64,000 bases of DNA from an uncultured Verrucomicrobiota bacterium (lineage in GTDB: Bacteria; Verrucomicrobiota; Verrucomicrobiia; Limisphaerales; SXQI01): assembly GCA_964566945.1 (NCBI GenBank), contig CAZMKE010000008.1, positions 81,222 through 145,221 of the forward strand, in the 5' to 3' direction. The translations under genes and the position numbers were made by a program. Under the pieces are notes generated by a model, which was given only the letters and a program-made list of their open reading frames with translations, was not told where the DNA came from and did not search any database. Shown piece by piece: positions 1 through 62,773 of the stretch (the stretch's first letter is position 1; each line of letters starts with the position of its first letter).

Positions 1-552
1 CATTCCAGCACCGAGCTCCTGGCATTTGTGAAAGGTTACCTCGCGAATGCCGCCGCGGATCATGGAGGATCAAGCCTTTCGCTCACCGCGGTGGATCCCG
101 CCGTGCTGGCGGCCGGGGTGGCGGGGCAGTACCAGGCGGCGGCGCGCCGCAAAGAGATCACCCTGGTTTTTGAAAATGCCTCGGCCAATTCGATGGTCCT
201 GGCGGACTGCGCCGCGCTGGGCCAGGTGCTGGACAACTTGATCTCCAATGCCGTGAAGTTTTCGCCGCCCGGCAAAACGATCCGGGTGCGCCTCTCCCCG
301 GACGCGGAGGCAATCGAGATCCGGGTGCAAGACGAAGGCCCCGGCTTTACCGAGGAAGATCAGGCGAAGATGTTCCGCCGCTACGCGCGGCTCTCCGCCC
401 GGCCGACCGCGGGGGAGCCATCGAGCGGGCTGGGCCTGAGCATCGCGCGCAAACTCGTGCACGGAATGAACGGCGAGCTGACGTGCGAAACCCGGCCGGG
501 CGAAGGCGCGACGTTCTGCGTGCGCCTGCCCCTGGCGAAGGAGACAGGCTGA
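1..552 (+). CDS. sensor histidine kinase, C-terminal HATPase_c domain (5' end lies outside the window)
   Basis: The frame is open from the window edge. It has an N-box LDNLISNAVKFSPPG, a G1 box DEGPGF and a G2 box GLGLSIARKLVHGMNGEL. The stop is 4 nt before the response-regulator ATG. Confidence 0.85.
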   Translation, partial: HSSTELLAFVKGYLANAAADHGGSSLSLTAVDPAVLAAGVAGQYQAAARRKEITLVFENASANSMVLADCAALGQVLDNLISNAVKFSPPGKTIRVRLSPDAEAIEIRVQDEGPGFTEEDQAKMFRRYARLSARPTAGEPSSGLGLSIARKLVHGMNGELTCETRPGEGATFCVRLPLAKETG

Positions 553-555
553 GCG

Positions 556-1923
556 ATGACCTTTCTCGTGATTGATGACGACAAGACCTTTCGCGATGCG
601 ACCTGCTTCGTGGTGGAAGAAGAGGGCCATGAGGCAGACGGCGCTGACTCGGGCGCCGTGGGACTGCAGCGATTGAGCGAGGAGCGATTCGATGCGGCGT
701 TTCTGGATCTCCAACTCGGAGCGGAAAACGGATTAGACATCCTGGCCGAACTGCACAAGCGCCACCCCAATCTGCCCGTGGTGATGATTACCGGGCAGGG
801 CAACGTCAAGACGGCCGTCGAAGCGATGCGGCGGGGCGCGGTGGATTTTCTGGAAAAGCCATTCCGGCGCGAGCAATTCCACACCGTCCTGGCGCGGCTG
901 CAGCGGCTGCAGAAGATGGGCCAGCAGATCGAAAAACTGGAGCGGGACGTCACGGAAACGAAGGCACAAAACGCCGAAACGATCTTCGACTTCACCACCT
1001 CGCCCATGCGCGAAGTAATGGAAACGCTCGGACGGGCGGCGGCAACGCCCGCCACCATCCTGATCCTCGGAGAAAGCGGGGCGGGCAAAAGCGTGGCCGC
1101 GCGCGCCGTACACGAGCGCAGCCACCTGGCGGATAAACCCTTTGTGACGGTGAGCTGTCCCAGCCTGTCCCGGGAACTTCTGGAGAGCGAACTATTCGGG
1201 CATATGCGCGGTTCCTTCACTGGAGCGGTGAAGGATCATTGGGGGAAAGTCAAAGCAGCGGAGGGAGGCACGCTGTTCCTGGACGAAATCGGCGACCTGC
1301 CTCTGGAGATTCAGCCGAAGCTCCTGCGCCTGCTGCAAGAGCGTGAATACGAGCGCCTGGGGGAGAACATCCCGCGCCGCGCCAACGTTCGCATCATCGC
1401 CGCCACGAATCGCGACCTGAAAAAACGCGTGAGCGACGGTTCGTTTCGTGAAGATCTCTTCTTCCGCCTGAATGTCATCACCGTGGAGATGCCTCCCCTG
1501 CGGCAGCGCGCCAATGACATCCTGCGCTTTGCAGTCCATTATCAGGCGCACTTTGCCGCCCAATGCGGGCGCAAGCTGAGCGGATTCTCCGAGGATGCGC
1601 TGGCGTTTCTCCTCCACCATCCGTGGCCGGGCAATTTGCGGGAATTGCGGAACGCCATCGAAAGGGCCGTGATCATGGCTCGGGGCAGCGAAGTGACTGC
1701 GGACGATCTCCCCCGGGACAGCCATCTCGCGGAAACCGCCACCGAGACCGGTGCGGCAACGGACGCTCTTTCCGTTGGAAGCCCAGTTTCCCTGGAGAAG
1801 CTCGAGGAAGCCCACATCCGGGCGGTTTTGCAAAAGGCCGGCGGGCTGTCCGAAGCGGCGGCGGTCCTGGGGATCGATCAAGCAACACTTTACCGAAAGC
1901 GCAAGAAGCTGGGCCTGGAATAG
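556..1923 (+). CDS. sigma54-dependent response regulator (NtrC/ZraR-type enhancer-binding protein)
   Basis: It has an N-terminal REC domain (VIDDD...FLDLQLG) and an AAA+ domain with Walker A GESGAGKS. The GAFTGA loop is present as GSFTGA and Walker B as GTLFLDEIG. The C-terminus carries a Fis-type HTH, AAAVLGIDQATLYRKRKKLG. Confidence 0.92.
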   Translation: MTFLVIDDDKTFRDATCFVVEEEGHEADGADSGAVGLQRLSEERFDAAFLDLQLGAENGLDILAELHKRHPNLPVVMITGQGNVKTAVEAMRRGAVDFLEKPFRREQFHTVLARLQRLQKMGQQIEKLERDVTETKAQNAETIFDFTTSPMREVMETLGRAAATPATILILGESGAGKSVAARAVHERSHLADKPFVTVSCPSLSRELLESELFGHMRGSFTGAVKDHWGKVKAAEGGTLFLDEIGDLPLEIQPKLLRLLQEREYERLGENIPRRANVRIIAATNRDLKKRVSDGSFREDLFFRLNVITVEMPPLRQRANDILRFAVHYQAHFAAQCGRKLSGFSEDALAFLLHHPWPGNLRELRNAIERAVIMARGSEVTADDLPRDSHLAETATETGAATDALSVGSPVSLEKLEEAHIRAVLQKAGGLSEAAAVLGIDQATLYRKRKKLGLE

Positions 1924-2032
1924 CCTCCTGAAAAACCCTCCGCACCGGGAACGGTCGCGAAACCATCGCGAGCCCGGGCCATCTCAATGAGACCGCCCGA
2001 GCCCGCGAGTCGAACACGACAGAACAGAGTCT

Positions 2033-2533
2033 TTACGGCGCGATCTTGTCGCTCAGCCATTGGCGGGCGTTGTTCACGCCGTCCTTCACGTCATCGACCG
2101 CCTTTTTCATGCCGGATTTAAAGTCTGCCCAGGTTGACTCGGTGGAATCTTTGGCCCCGTCGAGCTTTTCTTCGACCTTGTCCAACTGCCCGCGCAGTTG
2201 CTGAATTTTCGTTTTAGCCTCCTCCTTGGCGGCGGAGGTAGAACTCTCGATTTTCGCGGCGAGAGCGTCGAGATCGCGCTTCATGGCGCTGACTTGCGCG
2301 TGCATCCTCGCCCGATATTCGGTCCTTTGAGCAAAGCTGTAATCGCTCACCGCTTCGGCGGCCTCCTGGGTGTCCTTTTTGGCCCGGTCGAGCGCGGAGG
2401 ACGGGGATGAGGCTTCCTCGTTCACCTCGGGCGGGGCCATGTCCACAGCGGGCCTGCAACCCGAGACGCCGATCGCCACGACAAAAGCCACGGTGGCGGA
2501 AGCGATAATTTCCAGGGTAGATCTGTTTTTCAT
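2033..2533 (-). CDS. lipoprotein with Ala/Glu/Lys-rich helical repeats (hypothetical, stress-operon member)
   Basis: The ATG at 2533 gives MKNRSTLEIIASATVAFVVAIGVSGC, a signal peptide with a lipobox. The 5' extension of the 241-aa track ORF overlaps the DUF1328 gene in another frame, so I rejected it. Confidence 0.65.
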   Translation of the reverse strand: MKNRSTLEIIASATVAFVVAIGVSGCRPAVDMAPPEVNEEASSPSSALDRAKKDTQEAAEAVSDYSFAQRTEYRARMHAQVSAMKRDLDALAAKIESSTSAAKEEAKTKIQQLRGQLDKVEEKLDGAKDSTESTWADFKSGMKKAVDDVKDGVNNARQWLSDKIAP

Positions 2534-2562
2534 AAGCACTCCTTTTGTAAATTGTTTCCCGT

Positions 2563-2718
2563 TCAAGCCTTGCGCGTGATGAGTGAGGCCAGGAACAGCA
2601 CCAGGAAAATGACGAAGAGCATCTGCGCAAATCCCGTCGCAGCGCCCGCCACGCCGCTCAGTCCGAGAGCTCCGGCGACGAGAGCGACGATCAAAAATGT
2701 GACAGCCCAACTTAACAT
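2563..2718 (-). CDS. DUF1328 / UPF0391 small membrane protein (51 aa; below the ORF-track size cutoff)
   Basis: Hand translation gives [51 protein letters not shown]. This matches the two-TM YtjA-like DUF1328 pattern (MLxWAxxFLxxAxxAxxxGxxGxAGAAxxxAxxLFxxFLVLF). The length is 156 nt including the stop. Confidence 0.8.
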
Positions 2719-2806
2719 AGTTTTCCTTTGATTGATGGTTTAGGTCTGCGGATCTCAAGGATCCTGTCTGAAAAGGCCACCGCGCAACTGACGCGCGGGA
2801 ACTCGC

Positions 2807-2941
2807 TCACTGAGTCTTCTCTTGAATCTTCTCGCCCATCTTTTCGATATCCTGGCCAGCCCCGTGCGCGGTGTGTTTGCAACCGGAAGCCCCGCCGAGA
2901 ATCAAAACGGAGGCGAAAAGGGCAAAAGCAAATCGTTTCAT
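2807..2941 (-). CDS. entericidin EcnA/B-family small lipoprotein (44 aa; not in the ORF track)
   Basis: Hand translation gives MKRFAFALFASVLILGGASGCKHTAHGAGQDIEKMGEKIQEKTQ. A lipobox is followed by GC-x3-A-x-G-x-G-x-DI, as in E. coli EcnA (GCNTARGFGEDIKHLG). Confidence 0.7.
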   Translation of the reverse strand: MKRFAFALFASVLILGGASGCKHTAHGAGQDIEKMGEKIQEKTQ

Positions 2942-2980
2942 GAGAGTCCTTCTTCCCTGAAAAGCTGGAGATGTGAATGA

Positions 2981-3178
2981 TCAGTGCCCACAACCGCAAT
3001 CCGTGACCACGCGCTCGATCTCCTCCTTGGTTTTTCCGGTCCGCTTTTGGATCCGGCCAATCAACTCATCCTCCTTGCCTTCCACGTACTCGAGGTCGTC
3101 CGAAGTAAGCGTGGCAAACTTCTGCTTCAGCTTGCCCTTAACGATGTTCCAGTTTCCTTTGATTTGAAGCGTATTCAT
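2981..3178 (-). CDS. CsbD-family general stress protein
   Basis: The 65-aa protein reads [49 protein letters not shown], which is the canonical CsbD signature. Confidence 0.9.
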
Positions 3179-3246
3179 ATCCGTAATCTTTCTTCTCGAT
3201 GTTTTGTCGACTGCTTCCCGCGCTTTGCGGCGCGCCGAATCTCTTC

Positions 3247-3262
3247 TGCAGATCGCGTGCCG
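3247..3262 (-). promoter_or_regulatory. putative sigma54 (-24/-12) promoter for the csbD-ecn-DUF1328-lipoprotein operon
   Basis: The minus strand reads CGGCACGcgatCTGCA, against the consensus TGGCACG-N4-TTGCA. The GG-N10-GC spacing is exact. The site lies about 70 nt upstream of the csbD ATG. Confidence 0.6.
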
Positions 3263-3332
3263 AGCACTGGAGAAACGAAGGCACCCTGATGATCAGTGGT
3301 TTGAGCCGGATCAAGCACGCCCCGCCGTTTCC

Positions 3333-3348
3333 CGGAATGCATTTTGCA
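3333..3348 (+). promoter_or_regulatory. putative sigma54 (-24/-12) promoter for the AI-2E transporter gene
   Basis: The plus strand reads CGGAATGcattTTGCA. The GG-N10-GC spacing is exact and the -12 TTGCA is perfect, but the -24 element is weaker. The site lies about 130 nt upstream of the ATG at 3478. Confidence 0.4.
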
Positions 3349-3477
3349 CGACCGTGGGACGGGACGGGTTGCATTGTGCAAGCAACGACCGGATTGCCCG
3401 CTCCAAAATGCCTGGTTTGAGCGCAAGTCGTTCGTGGCGCAGATGGCATTCCCCAAGCTCAAGGAGTGAGCAAAGCC

Positions 3478-4677
3478 ATGATGACCGGAAATGTTCAGAT
3501 TGATGAGACGAGTTTGGCCAGGTCGGCGCCGAGCGAGCTTCGTTCTCGGGCGAACGTGGCCGCCACCGCGCAGGTCGTGTTCATCATCCTCGCTGCGTTC
3601 GGCTTCGCCTACGTGGCGAGAGCGGTGGTGCTCCCTGTGCTGCTGGCGTGCGGCCTGGCCATTACGCTGAAGGCTCCCATGGATTGGCTGCGGCAGTGCC
3701 GCCTGCCAGCCCCGGTGGCGGCCGCGTTCGTGGTGGGAGTGTGTGTGGCGGCCGCCGCCTTCAGCGCGGTTCACCTCGGGAGGCCGGCGGTGGAGTGGCT
3801 CTCGGCGGCGCCCGAAAACCTGCCCCGAATTCAGGAAAAATTTGGACAACTCCTGCGCCCGGCGGCCCGATTGACCCGGGCGGCGTCGACCGTTTCGAAT
3901 CTGGCGGCGTCCGAACCCGCCCGAGCACCCCAACCGGTCGAAGTAAAAGACAACCATGTGGCCAACACGGTTTTCACCTGGACGAGCAGTCTGCTGGCCG
4001 GCGCGGTCGAGACGGTCGCCCTGCTCTTTCTGTTACTGGCCGCGGGCGACCTGTTTCTCTACAAGCTGGTGCGCGCCCTGCCGCGCCTGCGCGATAAGAA
4101 GCAGGCGGTGGAGATCAGCCGGCAGATCCGGCAGAGCATTTCGACCTATTTGTTCTCCGTGAGCCTGATCAATATCGGTTTCGGGTTGATCGTGGGGCTG
4201 GCGTTTTACGTGATCGGCATGCCAAACGCCATGATGTGGGGCGGGGTCGCAGCGTTCGCGAACTTCATTCCCTACATTGGCCCGACGCTCTGCATGCTCG
4301 CCATCGCCCTCGCTGGTTTGCTGGCTTACGATACCCTCGGCCAAGGCGTCCTCCCCGTGGCCGCCTACGGCCTGGCTCACCTCGTGGAAGCTTTCGCCGT
4401 GAGCCCCCTGGTCCTGGGACGGCGGTTCGCGCTCAATCCAGTCGCCATTTTTCTAGCGCTGATCTTTTTCACCTGGCTTTGGGGGATGCTCGGGTCCGTC
4501 TTTTCCATGCCGCTGCTGGTGACCGCCAAGGTCATCTGCGATCGCGTCCCTTCGTTGGGCCTGGTGAGCGAACTTCTCGCACCGGGAGCGGCCCCGGACA
4601 GCGCCTCGGAAGCGAAAGCGCCGTCCATCCCCCGCGAATTGGAACCCTGCTGCGGCCCTACGACTGTTCCATCGTAG
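3478..4677 (+). CDS. AI-2E family transporter (PerM/UPF0118)
   Basis: It is a multi-TM protein with the family's conserved block GLIVGLAFYVIGMPNAMMWGGVAAFANFIPYIGP. I prefer the ATG at 3478 because AAGGAG sits 11 nt upstream. The track's GTG at 3466 overlaps that SD. Confidence 0.85.
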   Translation: MMTGNVQIDETSLARSAPSELRSRANVAATAQVVFIILAAFGFAYVARAVVLPVLLACGLAITLKAPMDWLRQCRLPAPVAAAFVVGVCVAAAAFSAVHLGRPAVEWLSAAPENLPRIQEKFGQLLRPAARLTRAASTVSNLAASEPARAPQPVEVKDNHVANTVFTWTSSLLAGAVETVALLFLLLAAGDLFLYKLVRALPRLRDKKQAVEISRQIRQSISTYLFSVSLINIGFGLIVGLAFYVIGMPNAMMWGGVAAFANFIPYIGPTLCMLAIALAGLLAYDTLGQGVLPVAAYGLAHLVEAFAVSPLVLGRRFALNPVAIFLALIFFTWLWGMLGSVFSMPLLVTAKVICDRVPSLGLVSELLAPGAAPDSASEAKAPSIPRELEPCCGPTTVPS

Positions 4678-4760
4678 CACGCCTGGCGCATCGTGACTTG
4701 TGCGGCGGGCGAAGTTTGGGCAGTCTGATCGCCGAGATGGTTAGAATCAGCTGTTGTTCT

Positions 4761-5624
4761 ATGCGCATTTTCTTTGCCGTGTTCTGTCTGTCCGTGGCCA
4801 CTGCGATGCAGGCGGCCACGCTCAACCTCGATCCCGCCCGGAGCCAAATCACGATCAGCGGGAATGTGGCCGGGTTCAAACTCTCCGAGCAAGGGCCAGG
4901 GAGCCTGACGACGACAGTTGGGGGAACGGTCGACATCACGACCCTCGGCGGCCAGATCCAAATCACGGGGGCCACACTGGATGTGAATTCAAACGGAAGC
5001 TGGGCGCCCGGGCTCAATGGCCAGGCAAAGTCACCCGCCGATCTGGCAGGCCAGGCGAGCACTTTGTTCGGCCCGATCACCGGGGCTTTCCGGGATCTGG
5101 TGGTGAATGCAATCGGCCCGGTCAAACCGCTCGCGCCGAACGGCCAGTTTGACGCCTCAGCGATCGTCTTCAGTTTTCCGCTGAATTCCACCTCGGTGCT
5201 GGACTATGATTCGTTTATCACAGGCGCCGGCCACCAGAACCTCGCCGGGGGGGGCACGAACCAGGCGGCGACGGTCGGCACGCTGATCGACAGCAATGGA
5301 ACGCAGACCCTGACCATCGGGCTCAACGCGACGTTTTTCTTCACGCTCGCCATTCCGAACGACACCGCGCTGACCCTGACCGGGCAGTTGGTGGCGACAA
5401 GCGCTCCGGCCGCCACACCGCCGCAAATCAGCGGAATTCAATTCACGAACGGGCTGGCCATCATCACGGCGACGAAGACCTTGCCGACCACCAAGGTGGA
5501 AAGCACCCGCACGTTCAACGGGTGGACCTCCGAAAGCCCGATCGTGACGGTGATCGACAGTTCCACGCGCACGTTTACGCTGCAGTCGGCGGACAAGTTC
5601 CGCTTTTTCCGTCTGGCGAATTAG
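4761..5624 (+). CDS. secreted hypothetical protein with a C-terminal FRFFRL tail
   Basis: It has the signal peptide MRIFFAVFCLSVATAMQA. The ATG at 4737 is an alternative start. The first 170 codons of the 462-aa track ORF overlap the AI-2E gene and were rejected. The protein is Thr/Gly/Asn-rich and looks beta-rich. Confidence 0.6.
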   Translation: MRIFFAVFCLSVATAMQAATLNLDPARSQITISGNVAGFKLSEQGPGSLTTTVGGTVDITTLGGQIQITGATLDVNSNGSWAPGLNGQAKSPADLAGQASTLFGPITGAFRDLVVNAIGPVKPLAPNGQFDASAIVFSFPLNSTSVLDYDSFITGAGHQNLAGGGTNQAATVGTLIDSNGTQTLTIGLNATFFFTLAIPNDTALTLTGQLVATSAPAATPPQISGIQFTNGLAIITATKTLPTTKVESTRTFNGWTSESPIVTVIDSSTRTFTLQSADKFRFFRLAN

Positions 5625-5775: not shown

Positions 5776-7065
5776 ATGAAACGCCTTCTTCTATTGAGCC
5801 TCGCGTGCGGCCTGGACCACGCAGGTTCGTTGCCAGAACTGACCGTGCCTTCGACCGTCGGGATCAACATTCACTTTAATCGGGGCCACGAGCGGGACCT
5901 CGACCTCATGGCGGAGGCCGGCATCCGAATCGTGCGCATGGATTTCGGCTGGGCCGGGATCGAACAGAAGCGGGGCGAGTACGACTGGTCGGCCTACGAT
6001 GAACTGACGGCCCACCTGCGCGAGCGGCAGATGCGGCCTTACTACATCCTCGATTACTCGAACCCGCTCTACGAAGAAACCGTCGTGAGCAAGAATCCGC
6101 TGAACGGGGAAGAGCAGCGGGACACCGCATCGCCGCAACACCCGGAGAGCATCGCCGCTTTCGCGCGCTGGGCTGGCGCGGCCGCCGCGCATTTTGCCGG
6201 CCAAGGGATCATCTGGGAAATCTGGAACGAGCCGAACATCAGCTTTTGGAAGCCGAAGCCGGATGTCGCGCAGTATATCGCCCTGGCCAAGGCCGCCAGC
6301 AGAGCCGTCCGGGAGGCCGATCCGCAAGCGATCCTCACCGGCCCGGCCACGTCCGAGGCGCCGGTGAAGTTTCTGGAGGCGTTTTTCCGTTCCGGGATTC
6401 TCGAGTCGCTGGACGCGGTGAGCGTTCATCCGTATCGAAACTATCGAAAATCACCCGAAACGGCGGCCGAGGATTACAAGGCACTGCGCGAGCTGATCAC
6501 CCGCTACGCGCCGGCCGGGAAGAAGGAGATGCCGATCCTGAGCGGCGAGTGGGGATACGCGTCGCATGCCAAAGGGGTGCCGCCCGAAACCCAGGCCTGC
6601 TTTCTCGTTCGGCAGCAGCTTTTCAATCTGGCGCAAAAGATCCCGGTCTCGATCTGGTACGATTGGAAGAACGACGGATCGGACCCGACGGAACGGGAGC
6701 AGAATTTTGGGATTGTCACCGAGGACCTGAAGCCCAAGCCGGCCTTCGAGGCTTTGCGGACGCTGACGCGCGAATTGTCCGGCTGCAAGCTGGCGGTCTC
6801 GATCGCCACGGGCCGGGATCAGGACTATGCGCTGCTGTTCACCGGAGGGCTGGCGGGGGCAAAACCGATCCGGAAATTGGCGCTGTGGACAACGGAACCG
6901 GCGCACGACGCGGTGCTGGAGGATGCGCGCTTCGGCCAGGGGTCGGCGGCGGCGGTCAACGGCTTTGGAAGGCCAGCCTCGCTCACGGTGGAGACCGGGC
7001 GCCTGAAGCACACGTTCCATCCCCTGCCCGACTACGTGGACCTGGCCGACGTTTGGCAGCCGTGA
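5776..7065 (+). CDS. secreted glycoside hydrolase, clan GH-A (GH5/GH39-like)
   Basis: It has the signal peptide MKRLLLLSLACGL. The acid/base motif is IWEIWNEPN and the nucleophile motif is ILSGEWGY, consistent with a TIM-barrel cellulase-like fold. Confidence 0.75.
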   Translation: MKRLLLLSLACGLDHAGSLPELTVPSTVGINIHFNRGHERDLDLMAEAGIRIVRMDFGWAGIEQKRGEYDWSAYDELTAHLRERQMRPYYILDYSNPLYEETVVSKNPLNGEEQRDTASPQHPESIAAFARWAGAAAAHFAGQGIIWEIWNEPNISFWKPKPDVAQYIALAKAASRAVREADPQAILTGPATSEAPVKFLEAFFRSGILESLDAVSVHPYRNYRKSPETAAEDYKALRELITRYAPAGKKEMPILSGEWGYASHAKGVPPETQACFLVRQQLFNLAQKIPVSIWYDWKNDGSDPTEREQNFGIVTEDLKPKPAFEALRTLTRELSGCKLAVSIATGRDQDYALLFTGGLAGAKPIRKLALWTTEPAHDAVLEDARFGQGSAAAVNGFGRPASLTVETGRLKHTFHPLPDYVDLADVWQP

Positions 7066-25555: not shown

Positions 25556-26513
25556 CTTTCAGTTTCGTCCGGTGCTCTTCGTAGGCTCCGATGATTCGCT
25601 GCACCAGCGCGTGGCGCACCACGTCGCGCTTGCCGAATTCCATGATGGCGATGCCTTCGACCCGGCCCAGGATGCGGATGGCCTCGATCAGCCCCGAGCG
25701 TTTGTTCGGCGGCAAATCAATCTGGGTCGGATCACCGGTCACAACCGCTTTCGAGCCATGGCCCAGGCGGGTGAGAAACATGAGCATCTGCTCGGTGGTC
25801 GTGTTCTGGGCTTCGTCCAGGATGATGAACGCGTTGTTCAAGGTGCGCCCGCGCATATAGGCGAGCGGGGCGATTTCCAAGATCCCGCGCTCGGTGTTTT
25901 TCAGAATCTCCTCGCCCGGGAGCATGTCATGCAACGCGTCGTGGAGCGGACGCAAATAGGGGGCGATCTTCTCGTAGAGGTCACCCGGCAAGAAGCCGAG
26001 AGCCTCGCCTGCCTCGACCGCCGGGCGGGTGAGAATAATGCGCGACACCTTCTCCTCCTTGAGCGCCTGCACAGCCATGGCGACGGCCAGATAGGTCTTG
26101 CCGGTGCCGGCCGGGCCGATGCCAAAGGTGACATCGTGATCGCGAATCATCTCGATGTAACGTTTCTGCCCGACGGTCTTGGGCGTGACCGTGGTTTTGC
26201 GGGCCGAAGTCTGAATGCGCTGTTCGCCGAGCTGTTGCAGAGCCTCGCCGCCATCATGGCGGGCGACGTTTAAAGCGTAAGCGAACTCCCGGTTGCGCAC
26301 CGGCGCGCCTGATTTGAGAGTGCCTTCCAGGAATTGAAAGACCTGCCTGGCGCGATCGATATTCTCCTGGTCGCCTTCCAGCTTGATCCAGCCTTCCCGG
26401 GAGGTGGCCTTCACCGCCAGTTCATCCTCCATCAGTTTGAGATTCCGCGGATCGTTATTGAAGAGCTGCTGCGCGTGACGCGCCGTCTCGTATTGCAAAG
26501 TTTCTGTTGGCAT
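25509..26513 (-). CDS. phoH: PhoH-family ATPase
   Basis: It has Walker [14 protein letters not shown], the block [18 protein letters not shown], and Walker [10 protein letters not shown]. Confidence 0.92.
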
Positions 26514-26517
26514 TTCT

Positions 26518-27006
26518 TTAGCTGGCCAGAGCCTTCCGCAGTTTCGCGGCGATATCCTTTAACGCCTCGGGCACCACCGTGGTATTGGCGAGCACCGGCA
26601 TGAAGTTGGTATCCCCATTCCAGCGCGGCACCACGTGAATGTGGAGATGCTCCACGATCCCGGCCCCGGCGACCTGCCCGAGATTAATGCCGATGTTAAA
26701 CCCCTGGGGTTTCATCACCTGCTTCAAAGCGTCCTGGCATCGTCTCGTCAGCTTCAATAAATCCGCTAATTCCGTTTCGGTCAACTGATCGAAGTCAGGA
26801 ACCTGCTTGTAGGGAACGATCATCAAATGTCCGCCCGTGTAGGGAAACGAGTTGAGCAGGGCAAAGCAGGTCTTGTCCCGGACGAGCACCAGATTGGCCT
26901 CATCCTCGCTGGATTGGGCAATGCGGGAGAAGATCGACTCTTTGCCCGGTTCCGTCTTGGGAGCGAGGATGTACTCGATGCGCCACGGGGCGTGCAATGG
27001 ATCCAT
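26518..27006 (-). CDS. HIT-family nucleotide hydrolase/transferase
   Basis: It carries the histidine triad HLHIHVVPRW. The stop is 4 nt before the phoH start. Confidence 0.88.
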   Translation of the reverse strand: MDPLHAPWRIEYILAPKTEPGKESIFSRIAQSSEDEANLVLVRDKTCFALLNSFPYTGGHLMIVPYKQVPDFDQLTETELADLLKLTRRCQDALKQVMKPQGFNIGINLGQVAGAGIVEHLHIHVVPRWNGDTNFMPVLANTTVVPEALKDIAAKLRKALAS

Positions 27007-32314: not shown

Positions 32315-32848
32315 TCAGTCTTGGAACCGGGCGTGGTAAACAAAATCCTTCTCCGAACCAGCTTTTATATGGCATTCCGCGCACACCGCGGATTTCTCGG
32401 GCGGCGTGATAAAAGCACCGTTCGGCTTGTATTCGACAAAGTCCCATTCCCCGCTCCGTTTGTCACCATACTGCTTGCCGAAGTTCCGTTCCTTGCGCAT
32501 CACATGCAAACCGGAGACGGCATCCTTCTTGAGCTGCCCCTTATCATCTTTGCGAGTAGTGGCGGTCTCCATGACGAGGACGGAACCGAAGGGATAAGGC
32601 AACTGAGCTTTGTTCGTCACAGAAGCCGCGGGCTCGTTGCCATAGACGGTCACAAGCTTGGCGCCATGGTCACGTTCCACTGTGCGGAGAATCGAGAATC
32701 GTGCGGCGTAGTCTTTGGGGAAACCGACCCGGTCCACTTTTGCCGCTTCATCGGAATCGGCGAGCGAGCCGAGGCTCAGCGTCACCCCGAGAAGAGCGGA
32801 CATACAGCTTCGGTTCAGAATCCAGGATGAAGGACGACCGTTTTGCAT
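32315..32848 (-). CDS. cytochrome P460-family heme protein (secreted)
   Basis: It has the C-terminal heme motif SAVCAECHIKAGSEKDFVYHARF, preceded by the beta-rich domain typical of P460. There is a signal-like N-terminus. The start is uncertain (32848 or 32803). Confidence 0.6.
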   Translation of the reverse strand: MQNGRPSSWILNRSCMSALLGVTLSLGSLADSDEAAKVDRVGFPKDYAARFSILRTVERDHGAKLVTVYGNEPAASVTNKAQLPYPFGSVLVMETATTRKDDKGQLKKDAVSGLHVMRKERNFGKQYGDKRSGEWDFVEYKPNGAFITPPEKSAVCAECHIKAGSEKDFVYHARFQD

Positions 32849-32988
32849 ATCGGCCGAGGCTAGGGACAATGGGGAAAATCGCAACTTTTGCCGGGACGGC
32901 TGGCCTTTGCTGAAAAATCGGCCTGCAGCGCTTGCGCGCCCGAAGGATTTTGGGCGCAGCGACGTCTTACTAGGTAAAAGGAGGAGAT

Positions 32989-33783
32989 ATGTCGAAGGTT
33001 TTGATCTGCATCGTTCTTTTCACAAGCGTCTTTCGAACTGGCGCCCAGGCCATTCAGCCGCCGCCTGTGCAATTGGCGCCCCGACCTCCGGTCGCCGGCA
33101 GCTTTGGCAAAGGATCCGGAGCCGAGAACGAGAAGGATCTGCCACGCTTCGACCTCGATTTCGCGGGAGGGACGCCACAGGAACTCGTTGATGCAATCCG
33201 GGCCCAGATCGGAACACTGAACGCGATCATACCCGAGAAGGACCGCGCAGAGCGCATTCCGGCCTTCAATGTGAAGGGGGCAAACGTAGCGGAGTTGTTT
33301 CGAGCTTTGCAGTCAGCGAGCCAGCAAACGCATAGTTATCAAACCGGGTTCGTGGACTACGGCGGCAACGGAAACAATCGGCGGGCGGCTTTGCAGTGGA
33401 ACACGGTCGTGAGCGGCTTCCAAACGGTGGGCGCGGTCACGCCCGAAGCGGTTTGGTACTACTCCGCGAACAGCCCACCGAGCCTCGACGTGACCGTTTG
33501 TCGATTTTACCAACTCGCTCCGTATCTCGGGAGCTATAAAGTGGACGACATTACCACGGCCATTCAGGCGGGCTGGAAAATGCTGGGGGACAAAGACACT
33601 CCCAAGCTCAACTACCATGAAGACACGAAGTTATTGATCGCGGTGGGCACGCAGGCGAAATTGGAGATGATCGACGCCGTCCTGAGCGAACTGAAGAAGG
33701 GAAAAGGCGACGCGGAAACTCCGTCCGGACCGCCTGCCAGCAAGGACGCGTCCAACTCGACTAAGAGCGACAAAGCCCGGTGA
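32989..33783 (+). CDS. secreted hypothetical protein with secretin-N/STN-like segments
   Basis: It has the signal peptide MSKVLICIVLFTSVFRTGAQA. The segments FDLDFAGGTPQELVDAIRAQIGTLNAII and KLLIAVGTQAKLEMIDAVLSEL resemble STN/NolW-like modules. This is an inference only. Confidence 0.5.
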   Translation: MSKVLICIVLFTSVFRTGAQAIQPPPVQLAPRPPVAGSFGKGSGAENEKDLPRFDLDFAGGTPQELVDAIRAQIGTLNAIIPEKDRAERIPAFNVKGANVAELFRALQSASQQTHSYQTGFVDYGGNGNNRRAALQWNTVVSGFQTVGAVTPEAVWYYSANSPPSLDVTVCRFYQLAPYLGSYKVDDITTAIQAGWKMLGDKDTPKLNYHEDTKLLIAVGTQAKLEMIDAVLSELKKGKGDAETPSGPPASKDASNSTKSDKAR

Positions 33784-33786
33784 GGA

Positions 33787-34422
33787 ATGACGCGGTCGAT
33801 GGAGGGCGGAATACAGGCGATGGCAGGCATGGAGGATGGGCCGGACGCCGGCAGAGGTTCGGTCCCAGCCTCTCCCGTGTTGCTGGGGCTCACTCGCGCC
33901 ATGGCGGCTGGCGACGAGCAGGCGTTTCGTGATTTTTTTGGCCTGTATTTTCATCGGCTGTTCGCCTATCTCCTGACAGTAGCGCACGGGAACGAGGACC
34001 TGGCGCGGGATTTACTGCAGCAGACCATGATTCGGGTGGCGCGCCATGTAAGACCATTTGCCAGCGAGGAGGAATTCTGGCGCTGGCTCACCCGGCTGGC
34101 GCGGAGCCGTGCCATTGACGAGGGGCGCAGGGCCGGGCGCTACTTTGCCTTTCTGCAACGCTTCACCCTTTGGATCAATACACCCGAAGAGGCCGGACCG
34201 GAAGCAGACCTGGACGCAGTGTTGCAACAAGAATTAGCCCGGCTGCCGGACGAAGAGAGAGCTGTGCTGGAGCGCAAGTATCTCCAGCACTGGTCCGTAC
34301 GGGAAATCGCGGAACTGCAAGGGACTACCGAGAAGGCGGTTGAGTCCCGCCTTAGCCGAGCACGCGCGAGACTGAAGCAATTGACTCTGGCGCGGCTCGC
34401 GGAGGAGGGCGAAAATGAGTAA
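33787..34422 (+). CDS. ECF-type RNA polymerase sigma factor
   Basis: Region 2 reads FRDFFGLYFHRLFAYLLTVAHGNEDLARDLLQQTMIRV. Region 4 reads LPDEERAVLERKYLQHWSVREIAELQGTTEKAVESRLSRARARLK. Several in-frame ATGs (33787-33829) could be the start. Confidence 0.85.
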   Translation: MTRSMEGGIQAMAGMEDGPDAGRGSVPASPVLLGLTRAMAAGDEQAFRDFFGLYFHRLFAYLLTVAHGNEDLARDLLQQTMIRVARHVRPFASEEEFWRWLTRLARSRAIDEGRRAGRYFAFLQRFTLWINTPEEAGPEADLDAVLQQELARLPDEERAVLERKYLQHWSVREIAELQGTTEKAVESRLSRARARLKQLTLARLAEEGENE

Positions 34423-56260: not shown

Positions 56261-56369
56261 AATCTGAAGGGATTTCGCCCGAAAAATTGCGCGGCATTTT
56301 CGCGGTCTGGCATGCAGATAGCTTGACTCATTGTTGAGTTGTGGAATGATCCCGTCGCAAGATAGTTCT

Positions 56370-60793: not shown

Positions 60794-62311
60794 TTAGTTG
60801 CTGTGGTAGGCTTCTTCGCCGTGTTCCGCCAGATCGAGGCCGATCGTCTCGACTTCCTCGCTGGCGCGCAGTCCAACTACCGCTTTCACGATGAATGCGA
60901 TCACCAGGGTGCCGACAATCGCGAGAACGAGCGTGAGCGCGACTGCCTTGACCTGCTCCATCCAGAGCCCGCCGTTGGCGACAAGGGCTGCGAGGCCGTT
61001 TTGTTTCGCGTAGCTGTTCGCGTCAGTCAGGTTCGAGTTGACGCTCGAGGTCGCCAAAAACCCCGTAAGGAGCGCGCCCATGGTGCCGCCGACCGCATGC
61101 ACGCCGAAGGTATCGAGCGCGTCGTCATAGCCGAACATGCCCTTGACCTTGGTGCAGAAGATGTAGGGAACAATCGCGGCCAGGACGCCGATGATCACCG
61201 CGCCGTTCGTGCTGATGAAACCGCAAGCTGGAGTCACCACCACCAGGCCAGCCACCGCTCCGGAGCAGAAACCGAGGATACTCGGCTTGCCCTTGAAGAT
61301 GTATTCCAGCAGCGGCCAGACGAAGGAGGCAACGGCCGTGGCGATCGTCGTCGTGGTAAAGGCGTTGGCGGCGACACCGTCAGCAGCCACCGCGCTGCCC
61401 GCGTTGAAGCCGTACCAGCCGACCCAGAGCATGCCCGTGCCGACCATGCAGAGAACCATGCTGTGGGGAGGCATCGGTTCCTTGCCGAAACCGAGGCGCT
61501 TACCGAGGAGCATGCAGAGAATGAGAGCGGACCAACCGGAGGACATGTGAACCACCGTTCCCCCGGCGAAATCGATCGCGCGGATTTTCGCATCACCGTT
61601 CCACACGCCGTTCATCAGGCCGGTCGAGCCCCAGACCATGTGGGCGAGCGGGAAGTAAACCACAAACATCCAGAGAGCGATGAAGAGCATGATCGCCGAA
61701 TACTTCATGCGTTCCGCGATCGCGCCCACGATCAGGGCCGGGGTGATGATCGCGAACATCAGCTGATACATGGAGAACACGTTGTGCGAAACCCAGTAGC
61801 TGTAGTTCGTGTTCGGATTGGAATCGACTCCGTTGAGAAAGGCGAACTTCAAGGTGCCGATGAACGCGCCGCCGCCGTCGCCAAAGACGAGGCTGTAGCC
61901 GCAGAGCCACCAGAGAATGGTGACCAACCCGGCGCAGCCGAGGCATTGCGCGAGCACGGACAAGACGTTCTTCTTGCGAACCAGGCCGCCGTAGAACAGG
62001 GCCAAACCGGGCAAGGTCATAAACAGAACCAACGCCGCAGAGGTCATCATCCAGGCGTTGTGCCCAGGGCCGGAACCGCTGATATTGCTCTTCACTTTGG
62101 CATCGGCCGCGTCAGCGCCGCGAGTGCCGTTGTTAACGTAAGCCTCGAGGTCCGCCACACGTTGAGCAAGATCCGGGTCCGCTTTCTGGCCGGCCGCCGC
62201 CGCCGGAGCGGCGTTTGTCGTGGCGGGCGCTGCATCGGCAGCGGTCGCGCGCCAGGCGGTTAAACTCGCCAAGAGAGTGACAAACAAGATGGAAATGATA
62301 CGTTTCTTCAT
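60794..62311 (-). CDS. amtB: ammonium transporter
   Basis: It has the Amt-family blocks AWMMTSAALVLFMTLPGLALFYGG, DFAGGTVVHMSSG and GVHAVGGTMGALLTG. The N-terminal signal/extension is Ala-rich. Confidence 0.93.
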   Translation of the reverse strand: MKKRIISILFVTLLASLTAWRATAADAAPATTNAAPAAAAGQKADPDLAQRVADLEAYVNNGTRGADAADAKVKSNISGSGPGHNAWMMTSAALVLFMTLPGLALFYGGLVRKKNVLSVLAQCLGCAGLVTILWWLCGYSLVFGDGGGAFIGTLKFAFLNGVDSNPNTNYSYWVSHNVFSMYQLMFAIITPALIVGAIAERMKYSAIMLFIALWMFVVYFPLAHMVWGSTGLMNGVWNGDAKIRAIDFAGGTVVHMSSGWSALILCMLLGKRLGFGKEPMPPHSMVLCMVGTGMLWVGWYGFNAGSAVAADGVAANAFTTTTIATAVASFVWPLLEYIFKGKPSILGFCSGAVAGLVVVTPACGFISTNGAVIIGVLAAIVPYIFCTKVKGMFGYDDALDTFGVHAVGGTMGALLTGFLATSSVNSNLTDANSYAKQNGLAALVANGGLWMEQVKAVALTLVLAIVGTLVIAFIVKAVVGLRASEEVETIGLDLAEHGEEAYHSN

Positions 62312-62332: not shown

Positions 62333-62722
<390 letters not shown>

Positions 62723-62757: not shown

Positions 62758-62773
62758 AGCAACCGAAATGCCA
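62758..62773 (-). promoter_or_regulatory. putative sigma54 promoter of glnK-amtB
   Basis: The minus strand reads TGGCATttcggTTGCT, against the consensus TGGCAC-N5-TTGCW. The GG-N10-GC spacing is exact. The site lies about 90 nt upstream of the glnK ATG. Confidence 0.65.

Follow-up and report, generated by a model that had tools for sequence, protein, structure and literature searches.

The window, a stretch of 64,000 nucleotides (64 kb) from an uncultured Verrucomicrobiota bacterium with a G+C content of 61%, opens with the genes of a Sigma-54 two-component system, followed by a run of four small genes on the minus strand and a transporter gene that diverges from them. The subject of this analysis is the intergenic region between the small genes and the transporter gene, for which a preliminary description, made from the letters alone, had proposed two divergent Sigma-54 promoters. 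That the region is bidirectional, with a csbD side and an AI-2E side, is supported by the comparative data presented below, which also lead to a different placement of one of the promoters. Genes were called with Pfam and NCBIfam profiles using the curated cut-offs, and every gene named in the preliminary description was recovered in this way. The features are as follows, where UAS stands for upstream activator sequence and the promoters and UAS are predictions:

1-552 (+): C-terminal part of a histidine kinase (HATPase_c in 28-552, Pfam)
556-1923 (+): NtrC-family Sigma-54 enhancer-binding response regulator (enhancer-binding protein, EBP), composed of REC, Sigma54_activat and HTH_8 domains
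around 1924-2036: hairpin of very high stability, located where the EBP and sll1863-like genes converge (-58.7 kcal/mol, z = -4.5 against shuffled sequences)
2033-2533 (-): sll1863-family helical stress lipoprotein, 166 amino acids, last of the four operon genes (NCBIfam NF052504, 59 bits with a cut-off of 35)
2563-2718 (-): DUF1328 (YtjA-like) small membrane protein, 51 amino acids, third gene (Pfam, 50.5 bits against a cut-off of 27)
2807-2941 (-): entericidin-like lipoprotein (ecn), 44 amino acids, second gene (Pfam, 23.5 bits against a cut-off of 23.3; lipobox present)
2981-3178 (-): CsbD-family protein, 65 amino acids, first gene (Pfam, 57.6 bits against a cut-off of 40)
3262->3247 (-): class A Sigma-54 promoter of the csbD operon, CGGCACGcgatCTGCA (matrix score 13.1, rank 4 of 128,000)
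3337-3349: UAS-1, aTGCATTTTGCAc, LuxO-type, matching TTGCAWWWTGCAA at 11 of 13 positions, centred around 107 bp upstream of the predicted csbD start site (near -107)
3369-3381: UAS-2, TTGCATTGTGCAA, matching TTGCAWWWTGCAA at 12 of 13 positions, centred around 139 bp upstream of the predicted csbD start site (near -139)
3444-3459 (+): class B Sigma-54 promoter pointing at the AI-2E gene, TGGCATTCCCCAAGCT, predicted start near 3470
3478-4677 (+): AI-2E (PerM/TqsA) family membrane transporter, divergent from the csbD operon (AI-2E_transport, Pfam, 150.9 bits against a cut-off of 34.3)

The comparisons drew on 916 kb of related loci, on 89 distant loci and on L090, a 96%-identical relative (individual loci are denoted by an L and a number). 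Orthologues of the EBP were recovered from 80 species-level genomes at 57-75% identity, and nearly all of these are labelled Verrucomicrobiota, Limisphaerales or Pedosphaera. The loci L001, L021, L036, L060 and L074, whose EBP is around 70% identical, have titles like Bifidobacterium, Klebsiella and Chitinophaga and are probably mislabelled or mis-binned metagenome-assembled genomes. Exact-sequence look-ups of the EBP and CsbD of the window returned no record, and the look-up of DUF1328 led to L090, which carries an identical protein. The best match in a metagenome scan with the AI-2E protein was 62% identical, so that no close relative was found there.

The EBP has the domain composition of the NtrC family (REC 89.5, Sigma54_activat 216.9 and HTH_8 30.5 bits in Pfam), with a GSFTGA loop at residue 219 that is kept as G[AS]FTGA in the orthologues. 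Two of the four small genes encode fewer than 60 amino acids (ecn and DUF1328), as had been stated in the preliminary description, and the small open reading frames (ORFs) are conserved in relatives: CsbD in 19 loci, DUF1328 in 22 loci (window included) and the sll1863-like protein in 14 loci, or 15 when the window is included, several of them behind Sigma-54 sites. The entericidin score is borderline, yet the protein has a lipobox, and homologues are found behind csbD in L029 and L069 and elsewhere in L065.

The two UAS contain TGCA-N3-TGCA cores at 3338-3348 and 3370-3380, which are 32 bp, or three helical turns, apart. Such cores occur three times in the whole window, where 0.76 are expected, and two of the three lie in the csbD/AI-2E intergenic region. 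The motif was found by anchoring the upstream regions of the related loci on the promoter. A core was present 30-260 bp upstream of 61 of the 220 Sigma-54 sites in the related loci (5.9 expected), with a peak at 70-130 bp, and paired cores were 29-32 bp apart in 16 out of 22 cases. The logo of 72 sites reads tTGCA[A/G][A/T]tTGCAa, with unconserved flanks, and equals the UAS of LuxO, the consensus of which in Vibrio is TTGCAWWWTGCAA (PMC10162802, PMC10328515). The spacers between UAS and promoter in other loci are enriched in IHF-like sites (13 of 66 with at most one mismatch, against 1.8 in random segments), although they are also AT-richer; the spacers of the window match the IHF consensus only with two mismatches, which is typical of random DNA. 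No Rfam family was matched anywhere in the 64 kb, so the region is not explained by a riboswitch or small RNA.

Both 16-mers that the preliminary description had quoted as promoters are present exactly as written. For the first, upstream of csbD, the proposed function holds up well. CGGCACGcgatCTGCA has the exact GG-N10-GC spacing, deviates at 2 of the 12 specified positions and shows the TGGCAC-N5-TTGCW context; in a scan with a generic Sigma-54 weight matrix it ranks 4th and the second 16-mer (3333-3348) 7th among the 128,000 positions of the window. The predicted start site lies near 3236, which would give a 5' untranslated region (UTR) of around 58 nt, and the earlier estimate of about 3235 is thus reasonable. 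When the window is counted, 17 of 20 csbD genes are preceded by a Sigma-54 site of the form yGGCAy-N5-yTGCA, in most cases at a distance of 49-82 nt from the start codon. The 23 DUF1328 copies derive from 22 loci, the window among them; 14 are preceded by a Sigma-54 site of their own and 7 are operon-internal, and of the other two, one has no site and one is located at a contig edge. Since the intergenic DNA around the conserved csbD sites is otherwise unalignable among the related loci, there is good support for a csbD promoter at 3262->3247, and with it for the Sigma-54 promoter that had been assigned to the csbD-ecn-DUF1328-lipoprotein operon beside the Sigma-54 two-component system.

An internal promoter or terminator was looked for in the gap between ecn and DUF1328 and rejected, as the best Sigma-54 score there was 0.5 bits and the best hairpin had z = -0.4 against shuffled sequences. 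At the other end of the run, the hairpin at 1924-2032 precedes a U-run on the minus-strand RNA and probably marks the end of the stress operon. The lack of a Sigma-54-like site in the gap and the strong terminal hairpin together point to a single four-gene operon. The structure at 1924-2036, located between the two convergent genes, is likely a bidirectional terminator. In L001 (7531-8410) and L023 (1-500 and 8137-8483), which are the closest relatives at the species level, the kinase-EBP genes are flanked by two separate operons, csbD on one side and the DUF1328/sll1863-like pair on the other, each with its own promoter and one to four UAS, and the four-gene run of the window therefore looks like a fusion of two modules.

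On the other side, the AI-2E promoter likely corresponds to 3444-3459, around 110 bp beyond the site that had been proposed for it. This assignment is based on a second class of Sigma-54 sites, class B, that became apparent in the related loci, with the motif yGGCAy-N6-RGCT, usually followed by a purine-rich stretch and located on the side of the UAS that faces away from csbD. A UAS lies 30-260 bp upstream of 33 of its 89 occurrences, against 2.3 expected (around 15-fold). With a matrix built from the 32 class B instances outside the window, 3444-3459 is the top match in the window (15.5 bits). It has the GG-N10-GC spacing, and its GG is located 70 and 102 bp from the centres of the two UAS, in agreement with the 70-130 bp seen elsewhere. 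Class B sites precede the genes for Dps, DUF5670 (lmo0937 family), DUF883 (ElaB-like), YqjE-like proteins and AI-2E as well as the operon of the CHASE3 kinase, and in L082 and L088 the same promoter class is found before a DUF5670-AI-2E operon. AI-2E genes recur within the stress clusters of the related loci. At a distance of 83 nt downstream of the AI-2E gene of the window, on the same strand, lies a gene for a 287-amino-acid protein (4761-5624, +) that has a signal peptide and matches no Pfam family; it was not seen beside AI-2E in the related loci.

On the basis of these comparisons, the 299-bp region 3179-3477 is probably a bidirectional Sigma-54 enhancer-promoter unit for the csbD operon and the AI-2E gene. 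The phosphorylated EBP (556-1923) would dock at the two palindromic TTGCA-W3-TGCAA sites, and looping would bring its oligomer into contact with Sigma-54 holoenzyme at two promoters that face outwards. The csbD promoter (3262->3247, -) would then transcribe csbD-ecn-DUF1328-sll1863-like up to the hairpin at 1924-2032, and the promoter at 3444-3459 (+) the AI-2E transporter. The signal would probably arrive via a multi-kinase cascade, from a CHASE3 hybrid histidine kinase to a REC-histidine kinase and on to the EBP. Only the last 174 amino acids of this cascade are encoded in the window; the full-length kinase in L013 and L090 is a REC-histidine kinase of 379 amino acids, preceded by a CHASE3 hybrid histidine kinase. 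What the data show are the sequences, the gene identities and the statistics of conservation and co-occurrence; that the EBP binds the UAS, that transcription depends on Sigma-54, where it starts and which signal induces it are what we infer from this arrangement.

The stress genes stay near the EBP in the related loci and their order is shuffled: in many loci they are located upstream of the kinase genes, in others downstream of the EBP. The first ORFs behind 64 UAS-promoter modules, collected without preselecting families, include CsbD, DUF1328, DUF5670, Dps, DUF883, sll1863-like proteins, entericidin, AI-2E and the CHASE3 histidine kinase, and furthermore DUF892 (YciE/F-like), BON (OsmY-like), the low-affinity iron permease family, Ku, PqiA and DUF3185. 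The remark in the preliminary description that the cargo is a set usually found in RpoS or SigB regulons is therefore borne out, and the survey widens that set. Given that the same combination of EBP, UAS and promoter appears to drive general-stress genes across the Verrucomicrobiota, we most likely deal with an osmotic, stationary-phase or general stress regulon that depends on Sigma-54.

A number of points weigh against this reading and are taken here together with the explanations that they would favour. The generic weight matrix is an approximation and serves as a scoring device only. Plain counting of matches to the consensus TGGCACGNNNNTTGCW with at most three mismatches gave 84 in the window against 111 expected, thus no enrichment; in this G+C-rich window such counting was uninformative and it was abandoned. 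Neither the window nor the 916 kb of related loci yielded an RpoN box. The best Sigma-54 site of the window (62758-62773, -; TGGCATTTCGGTTGCT) lies 87 nt upstream of glnK (P-II, 62333-62671), which forms a minus-strand operon with amtB (60794-62311), and glnK-amtB is a classical Sigma-54/NtrC target; the top matrix match thus provides an internal control, both for the matrix and for the use of Sigma-54 in this genome. Indirectly, the preserved Sigma-54 contact loop of the EBP points the same way. The comparison with L090, which has the same gene order, showed around 21 intergenic substitutions, none of which falls in the UAS 13-mers, in 3444-3459 or in the specified positions of the csbD promoter, and 4 of which are located within the 19 bp that separate the two UAS. 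This footprint agrees with the proposed model and is statistically weak, because L090 is, at 96% identity, too close.

The first alternative concerns the AI-2E side. The csbD side could be as described and AI-2E not Sigma-54-dependent, in which case 3444-3459 would be a chance match or a third, inverted EBP site (GGGAATGCCATCTGCG, minus strand) and AI-2E would have a housekeeping promoter that went unrecognised. On the generic matrix 3444-3459 scores 9.8 bits only, because its -12 element is AAGCT instead of TTGCA. The site is only 18 nt away from the ATG at 3478, implying a near-leaderless mRNA or a downstream start codon, and it is uncertain whether the annotated codon is the true start; the AAGGAG at 3461-3466 would lie upstream of the predicted start near 3470 and would be excluded from the transcript. 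In addition, an inverted, degenerate copy of the UAS-like repeat overlaps with the site, and immediately upstream of four close AI-2E orthologues (L002, L004, L017 and L025) neither a Sigma-54 site nor a UAS is present. Against this explanation stand the tie of class B to upstream UAS cores in other genomes, the fact that the class includes the promoters of the DUF5670-AI-2E operons, the first rank of 3444-3459 with a matrix built without it, and a scan of 1850-4800 in which no Sigma-70-like promoter was matched, although that scan may not suit this phylum. We therefore consider it unlikely that the AI-2E gene lies outside the Sigma-54 unit.

A second explanation accepts the modules and assigns them to another EBP, encoded elsewhere, so that the adjacent kinase/EBP pair would control something else. 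In L007 (4949-7754), a DUF1328-sll1863 operon with a Sigma-54 site at 6919-6934 is located directly downstream of a different kinase/EBP pair, whose EBP is a paralogue with 35% identity to that of the window, and an exact TGCA-N3-TGCA core is absent there; L062 has a paralogue that is 51% identical. Moreover, the UAS is shared with LuxO, which belongs to a different subfamily, so its specificity is not unique to one orthologue group. The L007 case shows that the match between the EBP of the window and the UAS is drawn from adjacency only. Against this explanation, dozens of species have the modules no more than 6 kb away from this EBP orthologue despite the shuffled gene order, UAS cores are around 10 times denser in the EBP loci than expected by chance, and the kinase-EBP operon is itself behind a class B promoter in many loci. 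Control by another EBP is accordingly improbable. As a separate observation, L007 suggests that a second, paralogous Sigma-54 system may control similar cargo in some species.

The layout given in the preliminary description, in which CGGAATGcattTTGCA (3333-3348, +) is the real AI-2E promoter with a start near 3360 and a palindrome at 3283-3300 is the EBP site common to both promoters, has some points in its favour. The 16-mer has exact GG-N10-GC spacing, scores 12.2 bits (7th in the window), is oriented towards the AI-2E gene, to which it would give a 5' UTR of normal length (around 118 nt), and is unchanged in L090 except for its first base. Mismatch counting sets neither this 16-mer nor CGGCACGcgatCTGCA apart, and only the cross-genome comparison separates the two. 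In that comparison, CGGAATGcattTTGCA turns out to be UAS-1 with a GG five bases upstream: its bases 6-16 are the conserved core TGCATTTTGCA, and it forms one of two 16-nt direct-repeat copies, the second of which lies 32 bp downstream. The GG is outside the conserved motif and is not conserved beside UAS cores elsewhere. A promoter at this position would have no UAS upstream and would leave UAS-2 around 16 bp downstream of its start site. Since the TTGCA half-site mimics a -12 element, matrix matches arise at UAS cores on either strand, as seen in L009, where one core is overlapped by matches on both strands. Most likely 3333-3348 is an activator-binding site and not a promoter. The palindrome had been quoted with one base too many; 3283-3300 reads ACCCTGATGATCAGTGGT (18 nt), and the true palindrome within it comprises only CTGATgATCAG (3286-3296). 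None of the 89 distant loci has it in its regulatory region, it is unchanged in L090 only, and in 299 bp chance alone would produce around 0.3 palindromes of 11 nt. A role of the palindrome as an operator or IHF site was rejected as well. The earlier layout is thus very improbable, and the combination of UAS-1 and UAS-2 with outward promoters at 3262->3247 and 3444-3459 is preferred.

Finally, the Sigma-54-like motifs could have arisen by chance, with the small genes being transcribed from Sigma-70 or extracytoplasmic function (ECF) type promoters. This explanation can draw on the unremarkable number of consensus matches and on an ECF sigma gene elsewhere in the window (33787-34422), but it is extremely improbable in view of the preservation of position and sequence in 17 of 20 csbD and most DUF1328 upstream regions, at EBP identities of 57-75% and amid unalignable DNA, where a match of at least 11 bits in a given 300-nt upstream region has a chance of around 0.04.

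Some further sequence elements were recorded. An exact 10-nt direct repeat, TGGTTTGAGC, occurs at 3297-3306 and 3413-3422, once in each UAS-promoter spacer. It was discarded as the site of a second regulator: the repeat is unconserved elsewhere and both copies are substituted in L090, and it is therefore probably due to chance. It has TTTGAGC in common with an inverted repeat upstream of glnK. The latter is a perfect 10-bp repeat, TTTTTGAGCA/TGCTCAAAAA (62892-62883 and 62869-62860), around 105 bp upstream of the GG of the glnK site, and the glnK-amtB region is probably an NtrC-type nitrogen module. Strong Sigma-54-like sites with an AGCT-type -12 element and no LuxO-type UAS upstream are found at 56308-56323 (+; TGGCATGCAGATAGCT), before a small TPR-like ORF and an IF-2B family gene, and at 26508-26523 (+; TGGCATTTCTTTAGCT), between a PhoH-like gene and a PSCyt2/PSD1 gene; these two may belong to other EBP regulons. 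Within 32315-34422, a Sigma-54-like site (33308-33323, -; TGGCTCGCTGACTGCA) is located between a cytochrome P460 gene (-) and the ECF sigma gene (+).

General stress responses are, to our knowledge, known in detail only under alternative factors of the Sigma-70 family (RpoS, SigB and EcfG), and the literature searched yielded no Sigma-54-controlled CsbD or general-stress regulon and no stress regulator of the Verrucomicrobiota. Verrucomicrobiota are abundant in soil, freshwater and the gut. Tentatively, the Verrucomicrobiota might run their core general stress response via Sigma-54 and one dedicated EBP, with a CHASE3 multi-kinase cascade, a LuxO-type enhancer and paired divergent promoters, as a functional counterpart of RpoS, SigB or EcfG that uses a mechanistically different sigma factor, and possibly as an evolutionary relative of the LuxO circuit of Vibrio. 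The Sigma-54 enhancer in the style of NtrC and LuxO is known; what would be new is its application to a general-stress gene set across a phylum. If so, a phylum-wide stress regulon would be predictable from the sequence, on basis of TTGCA-W3-TGCAA located 70-130 bp upstream of GG-N10-GC, and Sigma-54, which is silent without ATP-driven activation, would control genes that elsewhere depend on competition between sigma factors. For annotation, the lesson would be that motif scans miscall enhancer sites as promoters, as the TTGCA half-site of this UAS resembles the -12 element of Sigma-54. Several genes of fewer than 60 amino acids that are hidden by ORF cut-offs are recovered as well.

The comparison with known systems can be made at several levels. 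At the level of the cargo, the counterparts are the regulons of RpoS in E. coli, SigB in Bacillus and Listeria and EcfG/PhyR in the Alphaproteobacteria, with an overlap that includes CsbD, Dps, ElaB/YqjD (DUF883), YqjE, YtjA (DUF1328), entericidin, OsmY/BON, YciE/F (DUF892), Ku and the lmo0937 family. These systems use factors of the Sigma-70 family that are controlled by partner switching or proteolysis, whereas control here would be exerted by Sigma-54 and an ATP-dependent EBP. A Sigma-54 EBP on top of a stress or adaptation response is also found in the Rrp2-RpoN-RpoS pathway of Borrelia and in PspF/psp of E. coli. In Borrelia the effect is relayed via rpoS, whereas the verrucomicrobial stress genes have Sigma-54 promoters of their own; PspF is devoid of a receiver domain, and the psp genes under its control do not occur here.

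The preliminary description had likened the layout to that of ZraSR/zraP in E. coli. The resemblance stands, as both consist of a Sigma-54 two-component system beside divergent Sigma-54 promoters with common EBP sites, and in both the cargo includes small envelope-located stress proteins. Membership does not: the EBP reaches 320 bits against a ZraR cut-off of 760 and there is no cargo of the ZraP family. Furthermore, the UAS differs, and the divergent partner in the window is the AI-2E transporter, not the kinase/regulator operon. With NtrBC at glnAp2 the region shares two activator sites around 32 bp apart and, as the would-be mechanism, activation of Sigma-54 by looping. The NtrC sites at glnAp2 are centred near -108 and -140. 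The differences are in the half-sites, in the regulon, which concerns stress instead of nitrogen, and in the EBP, which scores 366 bits against an NtrC cut-off of 558.6.

The remaining system, LuxO/Qrr of Vibrio, has several elements in common with the region at the level of the enhancer: the same 13-bp UAS consensus, multiple UAS upstream of the promoter, Sigma-54 -24/-12 promoters, an NtrC-family activator with REC-AAA+-HTH organization and hybrid histidine kinases upstream in the pathway. The EBP of the window is not an orthologue of LuxO (329 bits against the NCBIfam cut-off of 800), it belongs to another phylum, the Verrucomicrobiota, and no LuxU-type HPt protein was identified in the window. 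The predicted targets are protein-coding stress operons and not Qrr small RNAs, in line with the Rfam result for the window. Judged by these similarities and differences, the UAS that the EBP of the window would have in common with LuxO is a functional resemblance and not a sign of family membership.

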